A stretch of 44,979 nt of DNA, the filler included, from Jimgerdemannia flammicorona (taxonomy: Eukaryota), in NCBI GenBank assembly GCA_003990765.1. It is 2 parts of 2 records of this genome, joined end to end, with 100 filler letters (N's around TTAATTAATTAA, not from the genome) between each part and the next. Parts side by side here need not be neighbours in the genome. Positions count along the whole stretch, not along the records: positions 22,543 to 44,979 come from RBNJ01001283.1; 1 more part is not named here. One strand, written 5' to 3'. The stretch's first letter is position 1; every line of letters begins with the position of its first letter. A program made the position numbers and the translations under genes. This document shows positions 1 through 44,201 of the stretch, piece by piece. Below the pieces are notes generated by a model. That model was not told the origin of the DNA. It worked only from the letters and a program-made list of their open reading frames with translations, and searched no databases.

Positions 1-3000
1 AAAAAAAAAAAAAAAAAGAGATATTGGACTGCCAGACACTCTGCCAAACACTTAATGGAGAAAATAACTGGCATCAAGATGGAGCCATCAAAGCCAACTA
101 GTATCATATCTACCATAGTTATAAACAGATAACCAACCTCACTTACTCTCAAGACAGCCAAAGCTGACCCAGTAGAGGAACTTGCCAAGCAGTTTACTGA
201 GATGATCGCATATCTTGATAATGTTGTTAGAGAAGTCTGAAGTACCAACAGGAGACCAGTGTAGAGATTTGCAGCTGCTACAGAAGAATGCAATATCACA
301 TGCTTTAGATGTGGAGAAGAAGACCACTATGTAAAGAATTGCATGACCAAAACAAGACATAAAGCCTAACCAAGCAATACTAGTAGAACCAGAGAACAAA
401 CCAATGCAGTAGTCATTGAGGAGATTGGTGATACTGATGATGAAGAATACTCTAAGGAGCTCGAATTCTACCCTGCTACTGAAGGTACCAGAACCCAGTC
501 CAAGCTCTATAATAAGAAGAGCAACAGCAAGCCAGTTGGAAGACCAAAGAAGACCCCAGCTATCACTATTCAAAGTAAGACCCAACCCGAGGAGATTGAT
601 CAAGACATGGAGTTAGATGAAGCTGCCTGCCAAATCATTGAAGACACTACTCCAGTCTCAGGAGAAAGTGAAAGCAAGAAGGAACAGAAGCTGTACAAGA
701 CCAAGATCCATCAGTATGATATCTACAAGAATCTCAAGGAACAGAAGGTCAATGCCACTTTTGGATAACTAGCCAAAGTCCCTGCCTTTAGACAGCAGTT
801 GAGAGTAGGACTTGCAACTACTACCAAGAATCAAGAGTACAAGATTGTAGAAGCTCACAATACATAGGAAGAATCCAAGAACTCAGGTAAAGAATCCAAA
901 GATCAGTGCAAGACATCAGCCTATACTCTATGTCAGATTGAAGACTATATCTTTGATGCCATCATTGATACTAGTGCTGGAGAATACCTCATGAGTAAGA
1001 AGGCAATTGACTGCCTAGGCTGGGACATTGAAGAGTCTACTAAGATGGTCTATATCACAGCAGATGGTATATGAGCTACCCCCCTTGGCAAAATCCGAGA
1101 AGTCCCCATTAAGATAGGAGGAGCTACCATCCCAGTAGATGTGATTGTCACAAGCACCACCAACTATGACATTCTCATTGGCAACCAATGGCTTCACAAG
1201 GCCAAGGCTATCATTGACATCAATGCCCAAAAGATACAGATCAACTATAGAGGAAGAAAGGTATGAGTCTTTATCAATGTTCACAAAGGAGTCCTACCAG
1301 ACATGGAGGAAGGAGATGAAGAGGACACAGAGGTCTTCATATACTCAGTGAACAAGAACAAGAACAAGAATAAGAACAAGACACTCAAGCTCACAGATGA
1401 GCAGTGGTATAACAAGATCATCGGTGGGTATGCCCCTCAAGGAAGATATCCCCATGGTACTAGGATGTACTGCTCTGAATACCTAAATGACTGCTGGTCC
1501 TGTATCAGTGAAGTTAGGAAAATCTGCCAACAGAAACATAAGCAAGAAGCTGCTGAGGCAAAAAGGAAAGCTGAAGAAGATGACCAGCCCCCAGAACTTC
1601 AGGCTGACAGTGATGATGAGGAGGAACAAGAGTCAGACATTACCCTCAAGGTTAAGAAGTTTTACCCTGAAGCCAAGATCCCAGAATACAAGACTGAAGG
1701 AGTCATAGGAATAGACCTTACTAGCATTCAAGATACTATCCTTGAACCACAGACCACTACCCTACTTGGCACTGAAATAGGAGTCAAGCTGCCAGAGAAC
1801 CATGCCAGAATTATCAAGACCAGAAGCAGTTTGGCCAAAAGTGAAATCTCAGTTAAAGGAGGAGTAATTGACCCTGATTACACTGGCAAGATCTTCCTCA
1901 TAGCCAAGAATCACAACCCCACCACCCCATTGGAAGTCAAGAAGCATGATAGAATTGGTCAGATGCTGATCCATGAAATCAAGAAGCCCAAGATCATAGA
2001 AGCTATTGAACTCATCAAGATCAAGAGAGGAGAACAAGGCTTTGGATCTACTGGAAGAGGAGCCTATGCTACTACTAAGATTACCAAACTTGAGCACAAG
2101 AAAGATAAGGACCAGAATAAGCACACATATACTATTGGAGAAAACTTTCCCCTAGAGGAACAACTTCTTAAGATCCTGCATTAGAACAAAGAAGTACTTG
2201 CTACAGATTTCCGGGATATCTATAATCAAGAACCCAAGTACTACTATGAAGTTGATACTGGTGATATCAAGCCCATCTACCAGAAAGCCAGACCCATACC
2301 ACTTGCCTACAGAGAGTGGCTGTGAGCAGAACTCAAGGAAATGGAAGAAGCTGGAATCATCAAGCAAGCTATTAGTCTCTGGGCCTCACTCATTGTCCTT
2401 GCCCTGAAGAAAGGAAGCAAGTTTGGAGAGTTCACACCAAGACTCTGTATTGACTACAGGAAGCTCAATGCCATCACCAAGAAGGATAGACAGCCCTTAC
2501 CAAATATTCAAGAAATCCTTACCACTCTTGGGAGTAAAGCCAAATACTACACCACCTTGGATCTGTTCTCAGGCTTCCATCAGATTGGTCTCACTCAAGA
2601 TACCAGTGAGAAATCAGTCTTCATCACACCTGATGCCACCTATATCTACCTGTGAATGCCATTTGGAATATGCAATGCCCCAGTAAGTTTCCAGCAAATG
2701 ATAAACAGAGTCTTTAGCAATGAGATTGGAAAATGGCTCTTTATTTATGTTGATGATGTGATCATCTTCAGCAATACTGCATGAGAACATATTAATTACA
2801 TACAGCTAGCCCTCAAGAAGCTCAAAGAGCATGGCCTCTACATCAAGCCCAAGAAATACAAGTTTACAGTCCAGGAAATCACCTACCTAGGACACCTCAT
2901 CAATCAGACTGAAATCTACACAGACTCTATGAAGATTGAGGCTATTGCAGCCTACCCAAGACCCAGAACAACCACAGAAGTCCATGTCTTCCTTGGACTG

Positions 3001-4736
3001 ACCAGCTACTACAGAAGGTTCATCAAAGGATACTCCAACATTGCAGCACCTATCTACAAGCTACTGAAGAAGGAAACCAAATTTGAATGGACCAAGGAGT
3101 ACCAAGAAACCTTCAATGAACTCAAGACCAGATTGACCCAAGCATCTATTCTCAGAAGACCAGACTGGAACCTAGAATTCATCCTACAGATAGATGTGAG
3201 TGCTATAGGACTTGGAGCAGTCCTAGCTCAGAAGAAAGATAGACATGAATATGTCATCTCCTATGCAAGCTGAGGTACCCATAGAGTAGAACAGAACTAT
3301 GAGTTATGCAAGCTTGAATGCTTAGCAGTAGTTTGGGTAGTAGACAAGTTCTACTACTACCTAGCTGAGAAATACTTCACTATTCAAACAGACTATTCCA
3401 CTCTTGCCTGGCTATTCCACACTCTGAACCCCAAAGGAATATATGCCAGATAGATCTACAGGCTGCAAAAGTATGACTGTACTATCAAGCACCACTCAGA
3501 AAGAACCAATACTAATGCTGATGCACTCTCAAGGACACCTCGAAACACCCCCAATAAGACCATTCAATATGAATAAGGAGCTATACTATGGATTAATCAG
3601 CTATCTTGGACAGTAGAAGATGCCCAACCACCTTGAACTCTGGACAATCACTATTATCAACTGGACTTAGAAACAGTTTGAACTAGATAACACTATACTC
3701 AGAAAAGGAGAAAAGCTAGTAATATCTAATCACAAGAAGTATCAAGTAATGAAGGAAGTATACAAGCAAGGACACCTAGGAGGAACCAATACCTATGACA
3801 AGACAAGAAGAACCATATAGTGGCCCAAGATGAAAGAAGACCTGTGCCAATTTGTCAAAGAGTGTGACAAGTACCAAAAACAGAAACAAGATCAATAAGA
3901 CCAGGCACCCGGGTCATCAAGAATTGAGCCTATCTCCTTCCACCACATTGCAATGAATATTATTGAGCCACTACTAGTAATACTATCAGGAAATCGCTAT
4001 ATTATAGTTATTATAGACCTCTTCACCAAATGGATAGAGGTAGGAGTATTACAAGAAGCCAATGCTCTCTCTATAGCTGACTTCCTGCACTGAGAAATCA
4101 TTTGCTGCTACAAGACACTAAAGCAAATCACAACAGACTGCAGCATGGAATTTGTCAATAGATTCTATGAGATAATGTATCAGAAATACAAGATCCAGTA
4201 CATCAAGACCACTGTGTACCATCCTCAAGGAAATGGACAGACAGAGAGAATCAATAAGACCCTCAAAAACATTCTAGCAAAGATCTCAGAGACATATGAG
4301 AATTGGGATAACTATCTCCCAACCACCCTCTCTGTCCTATGAGACATATGGTCACAGAGTACACACTTTATCCCAAGGGAGCTGCTCTTCAGAGAAGAAG
4401 ATTCTGATGGAACCTCAGTCACAAATCTAGACCTAACTTGGAGATGGATTGATGCAGAAATCTGGAGACTACACCAAATCAGGAAGAAAGCTGAAGATTA
4501 TATCATCAAGTCATAAGCACTGATATGGAAAAGAATCATAAGGCCCTAGAACCTATCTGAATTGGAGAAAAGGTTCTACTATATCAAAATATGGTAGAAG
4601 CCTCATGGTCACAAAAACTGGAGCCCAAATGGAAAGGACCCTTCTATATACAAGATATCAAGAGAACTACCTTCTGACTTAGAAAAATCTCAGAGACCAT
4701 ACTACCTACTACAGTACATAGGAACAGACTCAAGAA
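1..4736 (+). mobile_element. Degenerate Ty3/Gypsy LTR retrotransposon A (gag zinc knuckle-PR-dUTPase-RT-RNaseH-IN); 5' end not seen, 3' end truncated
   Basis: CFRCGEEDHYVKNC knuckle at 301-342; aspartic protease AIIDTSA...DILIGNQWL at ~950-1260; dUTPase at ~1640-2060; RT RLCIDYRKLN, LDLFSGFHQI and YVDD (~2746); RNaseH FILQIDVSAIGLGAVLAQ; integrase core YHPQGNGQTER and GPF motif (~4636). Many stops and frameshifts. Confidence 0.95.
1640..2060 (+). pseudogene. dUTPase domain inside Gypsy A pol, between protease and RT
   Basis: Within ORF 1303-2184: GIDL, RSSLA, GGVIDPDYTGKI, DRIGQMLI and RGEQGFGSTG match the five trimeric dUTPase motifs. Confidence 0.92.
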
Positions 4737-5100
4737 TAGTGCTCCCAAACAAATCAAATCAATTCGAATCAAATCAAATTGAGGGTTAAATGAGTCAAAT
4801 CGAATTGGGGATTTTTCAATTTGAATCAATTTGAATTGAATCAAAAGTTGAATCGAATTGAGGATCTGATTCAAACCCTAAATTTCAAAATGCAATAACT
4901 CAGTATAACCTTATTCAAATCTAACGTACTTTAGCTTGTTAGAATCACATTAATATGGTAAATCTAACAAGCTAAAATATGTTAAATTTTGATGAGGTTT
5001 CGTCGAGTTATTATATTTTGAAAATTAATGTTCAAATCAAACTTCGAATCGAATTGAGTTTGAGCCAAATTCGATTCAATTCAATTCGTTGGGAGTACTA
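4737..5100. mobile_element. Non-autonomous hAT-like MITE, copy 1
   Basis: TIRs TAGTGCTCCCAAAC and GTTGGGAGTACTA; subterminal AATTCGAATC-type repeats; internal inverted repeat with ~70-bp arms (4881-5027); related to the element at 43169-43539. No TSD visible. Confidence 0.8.
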
Positions 5101-5556
5101 AGTAGCATTAGTAGTGAATGGGTATAGGAGTGTGACTTTTCCACTTAGTCATAGGGTGCCACAAGGAGATTCTTTGTCATCTATCTTATATCCTTTCCTT
5201 GGAGCCCCTATTGGATAGGATCAGGTATTGAATTGGGGGTTTGAACATTTTGAGAATTAATTAGAAAGTGGGGGCTTTTGTGAATGATATAATGGCTGGA
5301 CTGGATTTATTAGAGAATGTAGAGGAATTAAGAAGGTCTGTAGAATGATATGAGAGGGGCTTAGATGCTAAACTCAACTGGTACAAATATAAGACTCTGG
5401 TGCTAGATGGTAGAATAGTTGATAGCAATGTGATTAAAATGGTAGTGCTGGCAGGAGAACCAGTCCATTACTTGGGGATCTACTTCTCAGTATATGAGTC
5501 TCTCCTGCCCCATGTATAGTGGAAACAGCAGCTCCTAGTATGGAGAAATATGCTCT
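5101..5556 (+). pseudogene. Non-LTR (LINE, L1/Tx1-like) reverse transcriptase fragment
   Basis: Manual translation gives VPQGDSLSSILY, AFVNDIMAG (degenerate FADD), YERGLDAKLNWYK and PVHYLGIYF, i.e. LINE RT domains 4-7 with lesions. Confidence 0.8.
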
Positions 5557-5625
5557 TAATAAGAAAAGATTAACTAAAAGATATAAAAATATACTAAAAC
5601 TAAATATAACTGTGAAATTATTATA
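5557..5625 (-). repeat. Truncated 3' LTR remnant of Gypsy B
   Basis: Direct repeat of 11195-11263, directly following the polypurine tract on the minus strand. Confidence 0.8.
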
Positions 5626-5640
5626 TCTCTCCCTTCTTAA
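5626..5640 (-). promoter_or_regulatory. Polypurine tract of Gypsy B
   Basis: Minus strand AAGAAGGGAGAGA abuts the 3' LTR remnant. Confidence 0.75.
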
Positions 5641-8600
5641 GAATAAACATTCTTATTGAGTTCTTAGGTAACATAAGACTAGATATACTTAACCAAAATT
5701 TCTCAGTATATTGGTGAGGATTGGTCATTCTCATATAGGGCAGAGGGCCTATTACTAGACTAATCAATTAGGAGGAGTTTGAATCCAGCTAATAGCTTCA
5801 TTTTAATGGACTTTTTGTTTATTAAATATTCTGCTAGTTCTGGGGTCCCAAAGTAAACTTTTGATATATAAGATACTGATTATTACTATAGGTCATCAAT
5901 AATTTAAAAAAGTCACTATAGAGATTGAGTAATGTATTTTGTCTCAAAGTTTTGAACTAGATCTTGAGAGTTCTTAAGATTGACCAGTGGTTCCAAGATA
6001 GCATTATATTCAGAATAACCTATCTACTTGACTAGGTATTTAGAATAGTGGTAGTGAATTTATTTATTAAGGATTTTCTCAGCTTTATACTTGATATGAT
6101 CTTTAATAATTACAGAGATAAATGGCTTAGAGATTTAACCAGGGTAGGACAGTGACTAGTTCCAGGTCTTGAGATATGATATATGAAAGACTGGATATAC
6201 TCTTATGGTTTCAGGTAGTTTAAGATGATAGAAGGATATAAAGACTTGTTTAGTAATCTCAAAAGGTCTAATATACTTGGATTGAAACTTGTTTGAAGGA
6301 CAGTTGACTTGAAATTATATCTTGAGGTTCTTAGTAGACAGTAGGACTTGATATCTAACAGTATAAGTGATATTACAGTATTTCTTATCAGCATACTTAG
6401 CTTGATGCTGTTGAGCCCTCTGAAGATTTACAGTGACAATCTTGAGTAGTTTTTCCATTTTGTCTGTAAGACTCTTAATAGTAGAGACTTGTATTTGACT
6501 ATATTTCTTAAAAGGAAATAGACTTGCAGAGGTCTCAGGATCTTAACTATAGAGTAACTGGAAAGGGAAAAAACCAGTAGATGATTGGACAATATTATTG
6601 TATACAAACTCTATATAAGTCAGATAGTGGTCTTAATTATCTTACTTATAAGAAATATAGTTTCTAAGTATTTATTCTAGAGTTCTATTTATATACTCAG
6701 TTTGTCTATCAGTTTGTGGGTAAAAGGCAGTAGATATAGCCAATTGGGTTCCCAGGATCTTGAAGAGGGTTTGCCAGAAGTGACTAATGAACTTGAGGTC
6801 ATAATTACTGATAATTACTTATAGTAGGCCATAGTGATAGAAGATAGACTTGAAGAAGATTCTTACAATCTCAGGTGTAGTAGCATTAGTAGTAGTTAGT
6901 TCAGTAACTATAGTCTTGATCAAGTAGTCAATGAATACATATGATGATAGCATTAGCACCAGATTGAGTTTGTAGTAGTTGAGTTATAAAGTCTATAGTA
7001 ACTTACTCAAATTTCTTAGTAGAAATCAGCAGTAGTTATAGCAAACTAGCTGATGCTTGATTGGTAAACTTGTTGCACTGGCATAGATCATAGCTGGTAA
7101 TATAGTTCTTAATTTTCTTAACCATGCTTGATCAATAATAATAGTGTTAGATATTCTTGACAGTCTTCTCAATTTTCAGATAACTGGTAAGAGGGAAGTC
7201 ATAGTGTTCTTATAAAACCTTATAATATAGATTCATATTTTCAGGTAGATAGACTTAGTCTTGATGATAGATCAGATTGTTCTTGATAGTATATATATCC
7301 TTGAGCTCATTCAAAAAAACTCTAGTAGTGACTGTATCTTCTTTGTAAGCTTGCCTGATTTGGTCTAGGAATTCTGATGCTAAGATAACTTATATAATTG
7401 TAATAAGATCAGAGTATTTTAATAAGGCATCTGGTACTATAAGTATCTTGTCAGGCTTGTAAATAATCATCAGATTGAAGATTTGAAGTTTGAGGCTCCA
7501 CTTGACTTATAGATATAACAGGGTAGATTGGGTATTGATATACTTGAGAGATTGATGATCAGTGATGATATCAAACTCAATACCTTCTAGATAGCATTGC
7601 CAGTGATCTAGTGCATATATTATTATCAGTAATTCCTTCTTGTAAGTAGCTAGCTTTTATTCAACTGGGGCCAACTTAGAACTCAAAAGCAATAAGGTGA
7701 TATTTTTTGCCATTATTTTGTGATAAGACTGCTCCAATGGCAAAATTTGATACATTAGTAGTGACTATGAATTTTAGGCCTTGATCTGCATTACACAGGA
7801 CTAGAGCATGGGTCAGGCAGTTTTTAAGTTCTTAAAAAGCTTATTGACAGAAGAGGTCTCAGGTGTAGGGTATATAGTAGTCTGAGTGTAAGGCCTTTCT
7901 CATGAGATTAGTCAGTGGCTTGGTAATATCAGAGAAGTTTCTAATAATGCAGTAATAGTAGCCAGTTAGACCAAGGAAGGATTAGAGTTCCATAAGATTC
8001 AACAGAATGAGCCATTTTTTAATTATTTCTATTTGTATAGGTCTACTTGAATTCCTTATGCAGAGACAATGTGGCTAAGATATTTGACTTATTTCTTGAA
8101 GAATTCATACTTCTTGAGCTTAATATAAAGCTTGTGTTTTTGCAGAATCTCTAGAACTATTCAAATGTGTTTGAGGTATTCTTTTTTAGTTATGCTAAAG
8201 ATCAGGATGTTGTCAAGATATACCAATAGGAAAATAAATAGTTAGTCCTTGAATATCTTATTCATTAGAGTCTAGAATATAGTGGGTGCATTGGTGAGAC
8301 TAAATGCTAAGACCAAGAATTTGTAGAGTCTAAAGGGGGTCATGAATGCAGTCTTGGAAATATTTTCTGGCTTGATTTGAATCTGGTGGTATCCTAACAT
8401 AAGATCCAACTTGGTGAAATACTTGACATTCTTGAGAATATCAAAGATTTGATCAATCAAAGGTAGTGGATAGTGGTTCTTGACAGTGAGCTTATTGAGT
8501 GTACAGTAGTTTATGTACATTCACAGAGTACTATCTTTTTTCTTAATAAATAAGACTGGTGAGCCATAAGGAGATTTGCTTGGCTAGATGGCTCCTTGTG

Positions 8601-22442: not shown

Positions 22443-22542
22443 NNNNNNNNNNNNNNNNNNNNNNNNNNNNNNNNNNNNNNNNNNNNTTAATTAATTAANN
22501 NNNNNNNNNNNNNNNNNNNNNNNNNNNNNNNNNNNNNNNNNN
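22443..22542. other. Artificial contig-joining linker (44 N + TTAATTAATTAA + 44 N)
   Basis: Symmetric N runs around a 12-mer with stops in all six frames. Confidence 0.97.
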
Positions 22543-25180: not shown

Positions 25181-26163
25181 ATGGATCAAAACGTGCCAGC
25201 TCCCAAATTTGCCACCCACCTTCCTGCGCAGTTTGAAAACGTCAAAGCGTGCGTCTGATATTCCAAGTATACGTATATGGTACAACTTACGTCCCCAGAC
25301 CTGCTCATCGCATCATGACTCCCTCCCGTTACCCAACAGATATGTTTTTGATGTCTTTGGTACGCTGTTCGACTGGCGCTCCGCCGTTGTGAGAGAGTTC
25401 AAGTGTTTGGCGCGCGATGCTTCGAAAAGGGGTTCAAACACAGAGGCCATGTTGAGTGGAGTAAATTGGATGGAATTTACAGACGAATGGAGGAAAGGTA
25501 ATTTGGCGTTAGATGTTCAAGCACTTTTTTCCTGTGTATCAGAAGGATTCATCACTCGATCTCTCTTTACTTTATATCCCAGGTTACGGTCGTAACACTA
25601 AGGCCTTGGCCGCCAAACCAACCCCTTCGGACTCATTTCCTAAACTCGACGTTGTGCACCGGCAGATTCTTGACGACCTCATTATCTCGCACGGTCTCCA
25701 CGGCGTCTTCACTGAACTCGAGCTCACGCATGTGAACCTAGCATGGCATCGGCTAGACCCCTGGCCCGACGTTCCCCAGGGTCTGCGCATGCTCCAGCGC
25801 GGCTACATGACCTCGACACTCAGTAACGCCAGCGTTCGGTTGCTGGTCGATCTGGCAAGGTGGGGCGGGATCAGTTTCGATCTACTTATTTCGAGCGAGT
25901 TGTTTGGGACGTACAAGCCTAACCCCAGGGTTTACTTGAACGCGGCCGAGTTGTTAGATCTGAGACCGGAGGAGGTGTGTCTCGTGGCCGCGCATCGGTA
26001 TGACTTGGAGGCTGCGAAAGGGTGTGGGTATGCGACTGTGTATCTAAGGAGAAAGGGGGAGGATGATGGAGAGCCAGAGATCAACACGCCTAATGAGAAG
26101 ATTGATGTTGTGGTGGATGACTTGCAAGATCTTGCAGTTCTGTTAGGTTGTATGAATATATAA
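25181..26163 (+). CDS. Haloacid dehalogenase type II (HAD superfamily), 3 exons
   Basis: KA|YVFDVFGTLFDWRS motif I, AWHRLDPWPDV, TLSNA, YKPNPRVY and LVAAHRYDLEAAK. Confidence 0.93.
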
Positions 26164-28173: not shown

Positions 28174-29488
28174 GGTTGAGTGTTGGGCGAAATGCACAAA
28201 AAAAAAAAAAAAAAGAGAGAGAGAGGAGAGTGGAGGGATAGAAAGGAGCTAGTAAGGGAACGATTCAGAAAATGGCAAGACACTGTCGATTGTTTTTGGA
28301 TCATTCACTTACTCTATCAACGCCTTTACGAATATATGGGTTAGCCGATGATGTCGTATTTTGAATACTTTCTCCGAAACCTTTCTCCTCTGTGATTTCA
28401 GAAACGAATGATAAAGTGTCTTTATAACCATGAGAGTTACGAATGTATCAATTTAATATGTCAATCATAAAGGCTTAAGATGAATAACACCAAGTGCGGC
28501 TTTTGGTTCTTCCCCCCGACTAGTCCTTCGCCCTTGCATGGTTCTCATTGACTTTATGACATTCTCTTATTGATGATTCATTAGTTCTCGCACGCAACGA
28601 TGGTTCATAATTGCATACGCACGACCATTTGTCTAAAGAGTCGCTGCGAACAATTTTTAAAGTGACATCATGCTGTAGGAAGAAGTTCAGATGGAAATGG
28701 AAAGCCACTTTACATCAAGTAGGAGTTCAGTGGCCCATGACGAGATCAAACTTTGCGTGTATATTAATCGACAGAATACGCAGATCCGATGAATATCCGG
28801 GACAGGATCGACTGTCCAATGTTCTTGATTGGATGTTGAAATATATAAAAAATACGGATTATTGCAAGCACAGAGGAAAGCGTTAAGTAGTCGAAATGAG
28901 TACGGCAATAATAGGCGCGCGCCATGTTCCAGACAAGACGCGCATGTGAGTATGGTTTGCATAACAATCTCAGATCCAAAAAGGGAATCCATTGCAAATC
29001 ACTCCTCCTTTCCACCATCTGCATTAACGTTTCCCCATTTGACCTTCCAGCAATGCTCTCTACACATCCACTTGACGTTTACGGCTCGGGCACGCAGAGA
29101 CATTTGTTTCCATAATAAGGACGCCGACAATGCAAAACTTGGGTGGGGGACTGCGGAGGCGGCGGCCGCAGCGGAGATATTGGGGACGATGGGCGTGAAC
29201 ATGGCGAGATAAGGAAGATGAGAGATTTCATTGCTGATGGCGGTGAGAGAAGATCAGCAAGAGGCTCTTGAAATCAACTGGGGAGGATATTAAGTCTCGC
29301 GAGTTGCTTGCCTTTCGTGTTTTTGCGTTTTTGACGACCTCAGCCCCGCTTCGCTCGCTGGATTTGGCATCGCTGGATTTGGCATCGCATCGCTTTGTTC
29401 TTGGTTCAGCAAACTATAGATCAAATAAGGACCTCACTTACATATGGGGCGTGCTGCAACAAAACCAGACAAAGTGAACATTTGCAAT

Positions 29489-30571: not shown

Positions 30572-32628
30572 TTACACTGATTTTAGGCAAGTGATATCTT
30601 TGAATTTATCCTGAAAAAATGAGTGAATATTGTGATAAAGGTATTTCTGGTGTTTTAATTCCATAGGAGGAGGTATTAGTATTGGAAATGATATAGCTTT
30701 GATGCTCTCTATGATGGAAGTTTCTGATTTACTAGTCTTCAGTAATTTGAATTCTTGGAAAGGACCATTTATGATTTCTTAGGCTTTGATCACTTCAGAA
30801 TTAGTACTGATAAAAAGAAAGTACTGAAACTTTTATATACCAGACAGCTTCTTGAAGTAAATTTTCAAACTACTCATAATGTCAAAGTATTAAAAACTAT
30901 CTCTATCATTATAATGCCAAGCTTTATTTAATCTAATGATACTAGACCTTTTTACCAAGTCTGTAATATGATCTACATAATCTACTATAGTTTTGTAATA
31001 AAGTCTTTTAATCAATCCAAAGCTACTATTATATTTGAATTTAATATAGTCTGGAACCATTAAGTTCAATTCAATACTTTTATAATAATTAATAATCATC
31101 AAATACAGATAAAACCAAAGAGTAGTATTATTTTTATTTTATCTACTTATATTATTATAAGTAATTTTCAAATACTTCTCATCTCTGTTTAATCACTTTA
31201 TTCTATTGAAAACCAGACTAAGTATATCATTCAAACCTTTTTTAAGAAGTTCATTCTTATTAAAAATATAATTAATTTATTCATAGACTACTTCATCTTA
31301 GATATCAAATAAATATATCTTGTGAGCACTAAGATAATATGTTTTATCAATCTGTTAATCTGAATAGAGAATATAAATATTTTGAGCTCAGTCATAACTA
31401 TAATGAGTCACTATATCAATGCTACAATATATCATCTCATCTTTTGCTATAATGATGAGATAATTTTGATCAACTAGCTTTCTCTATTCTTCTATCAGTT
31501 TGATATTCTTATTATAATAGTCTTACTCTAACTTAGTTTTGGCCAAATACTCTTTATATCTCTTTAATAGATCTTGGGCCTCTTTCTCTTTATGAGCTTT
31601 AAATTGTAAGTCATTCTACAAGTATTGATAAGTATTATATAAATTAGTTCTAGGGCTCATAATTTAGATATATAGAGTTAGCTAATATTATAATTTTCAA
31701 AATGTATTATATTTAAGTATACTCAGGTTGCTATCTTCCAGACCAGCTAAAAAGTTCCAGTGAATAGACTTGTAGTCCATTTCTACAAATAAAAAAGATA
31801 ATTGATTAAGTTATATAATTAATATTTCTGACTAAGTTAGATAATCTATAGACTTTAGCATAATTTGAGAGAAAATTCTTCACTATAGTAGTTATATTTT
31901 TATCAATAACTATTTTGGTTTTTCACTATAGTATTCTTTTTACATTACTATAGACCAGTAATAGAAGACTATTCTTGAGCAAGTGATTTTAAATATTTTT
32001 AAAATAATTATAGCTAATACTAAGTATATTGAGATAAGTTTTTTTTAGCAAATAGAAATATTATAATTCTAACAGTAGATAATTTTCTTATTGATACAAG
32101 TTTTGTTCTTGAGATGTCAACTAGTATTGATTACTTCCCCATTTATAAATCTGAGTTGAGTTATTAAAAAAATATTATTTCAGACTTGGAAAAAGCTTAA
32201 AAAGTCTTATGTATCTCAGCAAACTCTTTCTTGAAAATTTTGGAAGAGTAATCACAACCACAGCCTATTTTCAAGAACTTAATTGCTTTTTTATATTCAG
32301 TTATCATAATCATATAATATATTTTATATTCAGTTTGTCTGATTTTGGAAAATTTCTTCTATATAATATATTGAAAAATATATATGATTACTCCTATATA
32401 TCTCATTACTCTTCTGATACTTTTTTCTTTTTTTTTGATTCTTGATTTGAATTTTCCAATGCACATTTGATGACCTTTACTTCTTGATAAATCTCATAAA
32501 TTATTCTCTCTTTATCAATATTTTTTTATAACTTTTATATCAGATATTTTAAAGACATAGGGAGCAATTTTCTCACCTTGCTCCTTTTTCAAAATACTTC
32601 TAACAGTACTGTAGTTTCTAGGCTCCAT
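30572..32628 (-). pseudogene. Sola-like (DUF7869-type) DDD transposase remnant with a spliceosomal intron
   Basis: HYSYD*AQ, LKITYNNISR*NKNN (from DNCGGQNKNN), LNLMVPDYIKFKYNSSFGLIK (from GHTKF..D..FGL) and LSGI*KFQYFLF; GT-AG intron at ~31783-31853. Confidence 0.72.
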
Positions 32629-32850
32629 GGTGGACTTGATGTAAATTAGTTTCATACGTATTTTTATATGAGATCTCGTTAGCATTTTTTTTTTCTACAA
32701 CTTACTGAGAACGTTATTCCTCGAAACATGGTCACCACTTGTCCACACACACACAAACACACACATATACTGTATATATATATATATACATATTTCGACC
32801 TCTTCACAAAGGACAATATCTCTCTAAAGTCTATTTAAATAAAATGGGTT

Positions 32851-33001
32851 GTGCGGGTATACCCTTTCACTCCAGGCCGGTCCCCTTGCTGGGACACAGT
32901 CGCCCTTCGTGCTTAACAACCCCTTCACAATTTGGTGCGGGTATACCCTTTCACTCCAGGCCGGTCCCCTTGCTGGGACACAGTCGCCCTTCGTGCTTAA
33001 C
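32851..33001. repeat. Two identical 67-bp direct repeats (32851-32917 and 32935-33001) with a 17-bp spacer
   Basis: Exact duplication of GTGCGGGTATACCC...CTTCGTGCTTAAC. Confidence 0.97.
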
Positions 33002-33140
33002 CAAGTTGTGGTCAAGAAGAAAAATATTCAGTTCAAAAAGACATAATGGAGCCCATTCGCGACAGCAGCGAGAGGAAGAAAGGACTGCTATTTGTTTACT
33101 GCACATGACGTTGTCACTGATTTTTGGTTTACGCGTCTCT

Positions 33141-33383
33141 GGCCATATGGCCAATGGCTGGCCAGGGTGGCTCGGCCTTAAAATTTATGGATTGGCTAGT
33201 TGACCAAGTGGCCAAGCCTTATTTGGCTATTTTGATTTCCAAATTTTCCAAATTAAATAAATGCCATTTGATCAGTTGGCTGTAAATTTAAGGCCTAGAC
33301 AGGGTGGCTCGGCCTTAAATTTATGGATTGGCTAGCTGGCCAGGCTAAATTTAAGGCCAGTTGGCTGTAAATTTAACACTCTG
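33141..33383. repeat. Cluster of short direct and inverted repeats resembling a DNA-transposon terminus
   Basis: CAGGGTGGCTCGGCCTTAAA(A)TTTATGGATTGGCTAG at 33163 and 33300; CAGTTGGCTGTAAATTTAA at 33273 and 33358; ends ...AACACTCTG (CAGAGTG on minus). Confidence 0.65.
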
Positions 33384-33406
33384 AACACTCGTTTTACACA
33401 AACAGA

Positions 33407-35186
33407 ATGCGCGGCAAAAAGAACGACAACACCCTTGAACGCGAACAACTGAACTTGGATTGGATGAGCGCGAGCGATTCACCGATACCCATCGCATTTT
33501 TCCGATTCATTAATGCAGGGAATAAAAAGGCTGCATGGGAGAGCTACTCGAAGACCTTGATAGGGGCACTCGCAGCCGCTAAGGATGCCAACGACACCGA
33601 TGAAGTGAATAGGTTTCAGCAGACGCTGTCGAATTATAATGTACGCAATCACGTCTTACGATGCACGATAAAAAATATTCTTCAGTTGAGATTAACAGTT
33701 GGCTGGTTCTCCCTTTTCGCGATATGACTAGGACGGAAAATACAGCAAACATTGGCAAGAATGGACAACAGAAAAATCAACGGTAATACTTGAGCTTATA
33801 TGGTGAAAGAATACGGTGAAAGGAAAGTTACTCACATTGAAGCTTCGCACAGACCTCCATCGTGACAGGGATAACAGAAACTAACGTTAACGTCCACAAG
33901 AGGATTAACAGTAGAGTTTTTGAGAAAGTAAGTTTTTCTATAGAGTCGTTGATTTAGCCTTTTGCTCATTGAAAAGATTCATAATCGCTTTGCCCGTGAA
34001 GGACGACATCGACCAAGAGAACGAAGAAACGGTAAATATACGCAACAGTATATATACGCAACACTATCTTGGAGAGCATAATTCTGAGCTGATGTTTAGG
34101 TATTTCAGGCCGATGAGGATGACCAGCAAACATCAAGAGACGGCTCCCCTGGCTTCATTAAAAGGAGAAAAGTAGATCAGATCATAACGCCACACAAGCC
34201 GACTCTCACGCGACATATGTTTGACGCAGTATCTTCAACCGTAATTCCTGGGTTGAAATCCCTCAAATGTGTTCTTACGCCAAGGTACCAGGAGGTTGCA
34301 GATGAAGTTGGGCACCATGAGACAGAACAGAAGGGATTCTCTAGCTTGGGAGAAACTCTAACAAAGTGGTTGCGAGGAGTGTTGTTGGTATGTTTTTCAC
34401 GTTGTTGCTTATGATGGATACAGCGATGTCCCGCTAATATGCTATCCACACACTAGCCGTCGAGTCCAGGGCAGTTGTTTGAACCAGAACAATTGGCTGA
34501 ATATCTTGCGCAACCATTGCAAGGCGAGCGTATCACAGATAGAGATAAGAAATTGCGAGATGTGTTCGAAACAACGTTGAGAGAATTGTAAGTATTGCTC
34601 TTCACTATGTCATAAGCCTTTCTCCACATTTTGATGACATTCTTGCCTTCAGTTATATTATGATCAAGCATAGCCCGGGACTCAGTCTCCCCAGGCACAG
34701 TTCTGAGAGAAAGTTCCTCGTTGAGAGAGTGGCGACGCCTTTCAAACTCGTCGAATACGTATTTGGGCACGCCACAATTCATTGGTAAGCTTGGTTTGTA
34801 GTTAAAAAGGATGCGAGAGAGTGCTAACTTTGTGCTCTGATTAGGATTGAAAAAGAGATCATGTCGACCAAGGCAGTTGAATTCGTAGATGACCCGACTG
34901 GTGACATAACTTCTAAGAAAGCCGATGCGCTGGCCACAGATTTCGTATATAACGTAGATGTGATGAGCATGGAATCCTCAGGAGGGCCCCTGCAGCAGAA
35001 TCGCAAACACACGCTTGATGACTCAAACAAGATTATCCATACCGGCGTGGCTATTCTCCTCGCGTGTCTCCGTAAGAACCTCGGCGCTAGTATTGAAACG
35101 GCGAAGAATCTGAGGACGTACAACGTACAAATCATTGGTGCGTTTTTTTATCGACTTTGATGCCATATTTGATTAAAAATGATATT

Positions 35187-35251
<65 letters not shown>

Positions 35252-35583
35252 CCTCGCAGAGGATCGGATCACACTCACTGAGACATCACTCTACAAACCG
35301 CGAATCTGCAAGGTAGTCGAGGTCCGAAGCGCCGTCTTCCCGTTCGCGCTAACCTCCGTAGGAGAGTATATGCGTGTTTTCGAGCTAGTGTCGTATTATG
35401 TGGTATGTTTTTGTTTTTGTTTTGGTCTGACGCGTAGGATCAATCTTTCCAACCCTGACCTTTTTGTGCGCTTAGGACGGGTTGAACAGACGGCAGGAAG
35501 TTATGCGGAATATGTGTAATGAAGTTAATGGTCTTAAGGAGTTGACCTCAGAGAGCTTCCAAGATTGGTGGAATAGCGAATAA
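33407..35583 (+). CDS. Multi-exon protein with a C-terminal PD-(D/E)xK restriction-endonuclease-like domain (Mucoromycota-expanded, CR-effector REase-like)
   Basis: About 10 GT-AG exons; SERKFLVE...IHW|IEKE...KKADAL...MSMESSGG...HTLDDSNK...YNVQII|EDRITLTE...VEVRSAVFP; stop TAA at 35581-35583. Confidence 0.7.
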
Positions 35584-36296
35584 AACTTCAAAATTCGCTT
35601 GCCTGCTTGACAAAGTGAACATCTGTATGAATCCAAATCGAATATCTCCTTTATGATTAATTCCAGCCATCTTGGCTACGGCCGGGATAATAGCAATTTT
35701 ATTGAGGAAGCCAGCAAAAAGGTAAAAATATATAACGTCTTCAACCATAAAGTCACTTTGTCTGGTTTTGTTGCAGCACGCCCCATATATACTTACTATG
35801 AATACATTATTATGTCATTATGTAATATGTTTTGACAGACGGGGATCTTCGAGGAATCTCGGGGCCTCATATTTGACACGAACTCGGTGTGCACACAGCT
35901 CAAGATTATCACGGCCCGTGGCGCAGAGGGGCTGAGGGAAGATATGAAATATGAATATCAGAAAATCTGTTGCATTTTTCATTTCCTGCAAACAATACAG
36001 AATCGAAAGCAACCATTTGGTGCTGATAAAAATGAATTATCTGAACATGGCTAATAGCAACATGCACTCATATATGTCGGTACAGCATGAAAAATTACTA
36101 GTAAACTAGCATTGTGTTATCTGCACCACTATATTATGTGCGTTAGGTGTGGATTATATCTACGACGCGACTTCAATTCCTGCAAACTCATTTTATATTG
36201 CTGCATAAATCTCCCAGCAATCTCACATTCCCACACTACGAGAACATTGAGAAGCCAGTATCGCCTCGCTTCTACTCCTTCCACCCATTGCATGCC

Positions 36297-44127: not shown

Positions 44128-44201
44128 GCTCGCATAGCTCAGTTGGTTAGAGCGTGGTGCTAATAACGCCAAGGTCGCAGGTTCGACCCCTGCTGTGAGC
44201 A
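44128..44201 (+). tRNA. tRNA-Ile (anticodon AAT)
   Basis: Cloverleaf: acceptor GCTCGCA/TGTGAGC, D arm GCTC/GAGC, anticodon loop CT-AAT-AA, T loop TTCGACC. Confidence 0.97.

Follow-up and report, generated by a model that had tools for sequence, protein, structure and literature searches.

In this work, a pair of tandem RNA units was characterised in a window of 44,979 nucleotides of Jimgerdemannia flammicorona DNA (the whole stretch analysed, filler included), and the element that it represents is an uncatalogued family of folded RNA units, usually paired, with covarying stems. We hypothesize, with somewhat less than even confidence, that this doubled structure lies in an early intron of polymorphic nuclease-like genes and acts in cis to limit their productive splicing. 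Conserved structured RNAs have rarely been described in early-diverging fungi, and no description of this one was found in the literature searched, although the supplements of PMC5640933, which reports 15 fungal motifs, and of PMC10162972 may hold related motifs or alignments of mitovirus VS ribozymes. The parts of the window pair are as follows.

32926..33010, minus strand: unit 1 (the 5′ unit on this strand), with closing stem, three-way junction containing GUUAAG, 3-bp helix, GAA/GGA internal loop, 4-bp helix, variable arm hairpin and small hairpin (fold and comparison).
32846..32922, minus strand: unit 2, with the same core as unit 1 and its own 7-bp closing stem (fold and comparison).
32935..33001, minus strand: core copy 1, 67 nt, with GUUAAGC at 33001-32995, GAA at 32992-32990 and GGA at 32957-32955.
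32851..32917, minus strand: core copy 2, 67 nt, with GUUAAGC at 32917-32911, GAA at 32908-32906 and GGA at 32873-32871.
32918..32934, minus strand: 17-nt spacer, made of the 3′ arm of stem 1, a 3-nt hinge and the 5′ arm of stem 2; near-identical at two other loci.
32855..32864 and, in copy 1, 32939-32948, minus strand: small hairpin, its third pair G-C, C-G or A-U by locus and its loop variable.
32880..32895 and, in copy 1, 32964-32979, minus strand: arm hairpin, corresponding in shortened form to the multi-way junction found in the long subtype.

By pairwise comparison, the two cores (32851-32917 and 32935-33001) were identical at 67 of 67 positions, as the sequence-only reading had claimed. 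The different complementary stem that it described around each core was recovered at the same coordinates, with 7 pairs for unit 2 (32846-32852 with 32916-32922) and 11 pairs for unit 1 (32926-32936 with 33000-33010), and the 17-nt spacer and both inner hairpins of each core are likewise present. The single U-G pair of the unit 1 stem on the plus strand corresponds to a C-A mismatch on the minus strand. With flanks drawn at random from the window and G-U pairs allowed, the chance of at least five outward flank pairs was P = 0.009 and that of at least nine was P = 0.00036, jointly about 3e-6. The minus-strand 165 nt fold as two separately closed units in both the MFE and the centroid structure (-59.2 kcal/mol, with a mean pair probability of 0.88), and the plus-strand fold is weaker (-51.5 kcal/mol). 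The sense strand of the pair is likely to be the minus strand and not the plus strand, on which the unit had been read before. The folding z-scores were unremarkable (-1.27 for minus, -0.30 for plus); because the folding energy alone is not unusual, the support for the structure rests on covariation in relatives.

A DNA search of the same genome gave a single unit (L015) and two more pairs, L014 and L013, whose cores have diverged and whose spacer is almost unchanged. Among the three short-subtype dimer loci, core identity between loci was 57-77%, and the parts kept, in terms of the window minus strand, are GUUAAG, the 3-bp helix, the GAA/GGA loop, the 4-bp helix and the small hairpin. One helix pair of this subtype changes from C-G to U-A, in addition to the third pair of the small hairpin that changes as listed above. 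Despite their sequence differences, the closing stems remain complementary in both window units, L014 unit 2, L013 unit 1 and both L023 units; the stem of L014 unit 1 pairs once slightly shifted, and the small hairpin is gone from L013 unit 2. The flanks of other copies thus differ yet remain complementary, which bears out the earlier suggestion of tandem structured RNA units with covarying closing stems. Altogether, pairs occur in the window, L014, L022, L023, L025, L013 and L068, with a partly broken pair in L026, and single units in L019, L020, L021, L024 and L015. Several of the single units look like the 5′ side of unit 1 fused to the 3′ side of unit 2, which could reflect recombination or assembly collapse.

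In the long subtype, a four-way junction replaces the arm hairpin of the window subtype, and GNRA loops are found in sense orientation. The word GUUAAGC is common and is missing in L020 and in the second units of L022, L025 and L068. An alignment of long-subtype cores (n = 8) excluded, as near-duplicates, L019 and one of the copies in each of L022 and L025, and it predates the finding of L068. In these eight sequences, 99.3% of cells were paired and 4 of 17 pairs had changed on both sides, which none of 500 shuffles reached; slid-alignment controls were at most 52.7% paired. Related sequences without structure can give such a shuffle result in 0-1% (pair counts) to 5-25% (scores) of cases. In L068 (G000:C33592), the GNRA hairpin segment of unit 1 is repeated about three times. 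The element has few copies in the 231-Mb genome. Outside it, the long-subtype pattern gave three matches in metagenomes, one of them (L059) by chance, and soil-metagenome contigs carry a long-subtype pair (L057) and a single unit (L058), the latter behind a textbook splice donor. The same pattern had no match in viral contigs, and the short-subtype pattern had none in viral, metagenome or prokaryote collections. Four further loci (L011, L027, L037 and L073) were dismissed after inspection as chance matches, and in L016 a long degenerate tandem-repeat array (853-3130) adjoins a chance match.

In 6 of 7 dimers, the twin cores resembled each other more than the cores of other loci, so that the cores are homogenised while the closing stems stay distinct. 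The spacer does consist of half of one stem and half of the next, as had been noticed, and an old tandem duplication of the whole stem-closed unit, with later stem divergence and core homogenisation, would explain it.

Comparison with known RNA classes gave no assignment at the thresholds used. At gathering score, Rfam found only tRNA in the whole window; the 12 weak matches in 32600-33400 (E up to 10) were all below gathering, and four relative loci (E up to 1) gave nothing relevant and no riboswitch match. No covariance-model match to hammerhead, HDV-like, twister, twister-sister or pistol ribozymes was obtained in the window, in 32600-33400 or in the four relatives, in agreement with the misfit to these classes judged earlier by eye. 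A permuted HDV layout, compared by eye with the consensus, is without P1. H/ACA snoRNAs have a hinge ANANNA box and a terminal ACA; the element has a 3-nt hinge and no ACA box on either strand. Membership of the group II introns, with their Domain V and six-domain fold, was also rejected for the 67-nt unit, which had no Rfam hit. The intron-like core ends to which attention had been drawn are incidental, as they vary among copies and are antisense in the paralogous elements. The hairpin ribozyme has the invariant residues G+1, G8, A22-A23-A24-C25 and A38, according to the relevant passages of PMC8216279; a loop-A-like GAA/G register is present here, but there is no conserved AAAC loop-B strand and no Rfam hit.

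Exon 1 of the window gene (33407) finds nine loci in the genome, itself counted, and in each of the other eight (8/8) a related element in sense orientation lies shortly before this exon. The soil-metagenome pair L057 lies directly upstream of the same exon 1 (exon-1 profile E 2.5e-24), and a multi-exon gene in the same sense starts about 80-100 nt downstream of the pair in L013 and L014. The family exon is also present in C480, whose upstream sequence is too short to show the element. On the other hand, L015, L026 and L058 have the element and no detected family exon. In 9 of 10 loci, a donor-like word, hand-picked by eye, precedes the end of UUAAG by 49-55 nt, and in the paralogs branch-like words and a pyrimidine tract lie between element and exon; the branch words preceding GUUAAGC are weak. 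In L023, donor and acceptor join two coding stretches in frame, and in L019, L021, L022 and L025 an upstream AUG stands right behind the UUAAG word. As the intron position in the paralogs comes from splice-site sequence and not from RNA joints, we infer that the element sits in an early intron, mostly the 5′ leader intron. Furthermore, the RNA element tracks the shared N-terminal exon, and the RNA subtype does not go with the C-terminal domain type.

These positions fit the proposed cis control of splicing, since all eight of the other exon-1 loci, plus L013 and the independent metagenome contig L057, carry the element upstream. A protein, most simply the shared N-terminal domain of the family, would bind the conserved loops of the junction, some 45 nt past the donor. 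The bound protein could then lead to intron retention, or UUAAG could be used as a decoy acceptor, and two units would mean two binding sites and a tighter switch. The RNA accompanies polymorphic nuclease-like genes with relatives in arbuscular mycorrhizal fungi, and it points to how the cell restrains such proteins. Against a purely cis role, however, argues the window copy, which is antisense to the neighbouring gene, with no family gene remnant downstream of the pair, and yet is intact. Its surroundings are as follows.

33011..33073, minus strand: probable leader, without a clear splice donor, unlike the paralogs; the ends of contigs from two runs are a weak hint of its start.
33105..33140, no strand assigned: promoter-like palindromic words TGACGT and ACGCGT, also upstream of paralogs.
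33141..33385 (approximate limits), no strand assigned: GGCC-rich, MITE-like insert with internal direct and inverted repeats, in the expected place of the leader intron of the gene and bounded by the promoter-like words and the gene's acceptor.
33407..35583, plus strand: intact 494-codon gene of 10 exons, with the shared helical N-terminal exon and a restriction-endonuclease-like C-terminal domain (RNA joints, relatives, model).

Most introns of this gene were taken from RNA joints in runs X3 and X4, one acceptor was inferred, and the frame is open over 494 codons. In contigs of X1 and X2, the gene has little or no cover among the pieces listed, a gap that proves nothing. One X4 contig (depth 2) has a joint at 34587-35077 that skips two exons, including most of the putative catalytic exon. 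The residues D376, E392, H404, D408 and K411 are at least 90% conserved in 27 sequences. A model of the relative P0002 (pLDDT 71.6) was aligned with BpuSI (Z 8.4, rmsd 4.1, 155 aligned) and DrdV (Z 7.9, rmsd 3.9, 139 aligned); its best structural alignments were with two chains (Z 9.6 and 9.2) which we take to be mitoribosomal and of mL37 type, and Foldseek with this model gave no match at E 0.001. By these residues and the model, the gene has a PD-(D/E)XK restriction-endonuclease-like core in which the acidic and lysine residues are kept, and its nuclease activity is putative. Exon 1 is common to the paralogs and the C-terminal parts differ. Pfam had no match for six family fragments, and the search with exon 1 found no longer relatives. 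The Atlas protein search returned only unnamed Mucoromycota clusters; the nearest protein clusters are from Mucoromycota, and the named relatives are mostly arbuscular mycorrhizal fungi.

The window pair lies head-to-head with this intact gene, with promoter-like words and a repeat insert between them, and the words at 33105-33140 are probably common to the RNA pair and the gene. Contigs of X1, X2 and X4 cover the pair, X1 stopping at 33073 and X2 at 33070; X1-X3 are RNA by presumption and X4 is RNA on record, and such contigs give neither strand nor start nor cut sites. Between the X4 contig (depth about 2) and the window pair, six differences were located, all six in the two variable hairpins, a clustering with P 0.002, or 0.018 if they are taken as four events. 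The intact antisense copy and the X4 differences sparing the core fit a gene-independent RNA better than a pure cis switch. On the main reading, the window copy is a displaced leader that has lost its donor, either a recent orphan or a trans-acting binding decoy, and its flipped orientation offers a natural way to tell cis from trans action.

Three other readings have to be weighed against the cis control of splicing. The units, freed from the intron or, in the window, transcribed from their own promoter, could be an RNA antitoxin or partner that binds the nuclease-like protein and holds it inactive, in the manner of bacterial type III antitoxin repeats; we regard this as unlikely. Tandem folded units directly upstream of nuclease-fold genes would fit it, as would the homogenised twin cores of 6/7 dimers and a window pair kept intact though flipped beside an intact gene, with strain differences sparing the conserved core. 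However, the RNA subtype does not track the nuclease type, no pseudoknot was seen by eye, and the protein fold of the family is restriction-endonuclease-like and not the ToxN fold. If true, a eukaryotic RNA antitoxin would be about as new as the miniature ribozyme considered below. Fungal TPP riboswitches control splicing, and a riboswitch-like tandem that senses a small molecule or an ion could do the same here. The invariant unpaired bases and GNRA loop of the multi-way junction, the tandem units in a leader intron and the upstream AUG behind UUAAG in four loci all speak for such a sensor; but its probability is low, as Rfam gave no riboswitch match, the genes are not metabolic and the junction is largely deleted in the window subtype. 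Very improbable is a mobile DNA mini-element inserting at hairpin axes, as had been proposed, or a neutral relic copied with the gene family. The window copy, L015, L026 and L058, all without a sense family gene, and the weak folding z-scores could be read in this way. Insertion at hairpin axes is contradicted by a spacer kept in three loci with differing cores, by the same place in paralogous genes and by the few copies in the genome; neither dispersed copies nor empty palindromic target sites were found, and the 13-nt spacer word had 7 matches (three the dimers themselves, four unrelated chance matches) against 7 for a control word. Moreover, selection at the RNA level is indicated by the compensatory changes and by the GNRA loops.

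A further reading, which we also consider doubtful, is a small self-cleaving ribozyme resembling the Neurospora VS ribozyme and working only as a pair, with unit 1 docking on unit 2. It would cut the minus strand at 32992/32991 and 32908/32907. The window core matches VS residues 619-627 at 9 of 9 positions (sequence from PMC5393176; numbering and roles from passages of PMC5573960). The opposite strand follows VS 632-640 in its pre-shifted form with one extra G, and across the helix there are matches to 756-760 and 727-730. All three short-subtype dimer loci keep these positions, with the C-G to U-A change in the stem, and VS itself crystallises as a dimer cleaving in trans (PMC5573960). Because the cleavage and acid loops flank one 3-bp helix and cannot meet within a unit, two units would have to dock, which would explain the pairs. 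On the other hand, in comparison with the VS cleavage loop (G620-A621-A622 against G638-A639), the residues are present in the short subtype, and the extra G gives a 3x3 loop, whereas the active VS loop is 3x2 (PMC5573960). In comparison with the A756 loop (A730 against C755-A756-G757), AGCAC and GUGA match but open into the three-way junction, and the G-A pair becomes G-C or G-U in L022 and L023. L021, L024, L023 and the second units of L022, L025 and L057 lack the G638-like (general-base) residue. The contigs run through both predicted cut sites, so that uncut RNA or DNA is present. The window subtype closely resembles both VS active-site loops, but these are not kept family-wide; folded RNA often has G/A-rich loops, and the resemblance came to notice post hoc. 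Membership of the VS family was rejected, as the loop is 3x3 and there is no I/V kissing loop and no helices II-V with two three-way junctions, the loops varying freely without conserved complementarity. A miniature ribozyme with both VS-type catalytic loops on one short helix, active only with two docked tandem units, is thus rather improbable. If true, it would cut the leader or intron of nuclease-like genes, explain the pairs of identical, separately closed units, and represent a nuclear and far smaller relative of a class of ribozymes that has to date been reported from mitochondrial elements.

Some other features of the window were also recorded. An N run lies at 22443-22486, where the window joins two contigs, and the RNA pair is on the second (RBNJ01001283.1). 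An AT-rich decayed repeat at 30589-32656 is 75% identical to sequence beside the L014 pair, and its end also occurs upstream of the element in L022 and L024, which suggests repeated insertion near these genes. Contig depth in RNA runs is very high for a 35-39-nt word that starts GGGGCGTGCTGCAAC; this dispersed mini-repeat is found at 35753-35791 (apparent intron or 3′ region of the gene), at 29439-29477 (6.3 kb off, inverted) and, in L019 and L025, upstream. An interpretation of the 39-nt inverted pair 29439-29477/35753-35791 as transposon ends was rejected, because the right copy lies in the apparent intron and the word is dispersed and high-copy. An imperfect 82-nt inverted repeat at 4867-5039 stands beside a retroelement-like region with a dUTPase domain (1267-2184), and L013 has a similar arrangement at 5475-6828. 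A tRNA gene with anticodon AAU (Ile) was found at 44128-44201 (Rfam 65.8 bits), and a HAD-family hydrolase gene at 25513-26163 (Pfam PF00702, E 6.7e-9).

Compared with known systems, the element shares the matched loops with the Neurospora VS ribozyme, of which mitovirus variants exist (PMC10162972), and the pairing of its units recalls the VS dimer (PMC5573960, PMC3105416 and PMC5393176, in their passages on these points). It differs in its size (67 nt vs about 160) and in being nuclear and intronic. Type III toxin-antitoxin systems (PMC3401426) also place tandem folded RNA units upstream of a nuclease gene; the present family, in contrast, is eukaryotic and intronic, with two units, no pseudoknot found and another nuclease fold. 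Crinkler-related (CR) proteins have helical headers and REase ends, and like the present family they combine a shared N-terminal module with variable restriction-endonuclease-like C-termini (PMC5289972). The family gene, however, has no Pfam match or visible ubiquitin-like header, and the CR passages of that paper mention no RNA element. The first intron of the Neurospora spore killer gene rfk-1 contains 7.2 near-identical repeats of 46-48 nt (bioRxiv 10.1101/2020.12.30.424869), and resembles the present case in that a conflict gene carries, in its first intron, tandem repeats that affect expression; separately closed units are not described in the passages of that preprint on the intron, and the protein is unrelated. 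In yeast RPL22B, an intronic stem-loop bound by Rpl22p blocks splicing (PMC4838235). The present family differs from it by its tandem multi-way junctions, homogenised cores and polymorphic nuclease-like genes, and by protein binding that is putative. A location in the intron of the regulated gene, as in RPL22B, agrees with the splice-site sequence in the paralogs, though not with the window copy, and what both systems have in common is a folded RNA within an intron, proposed to limit the splicing of its own gene (PMC4838235).
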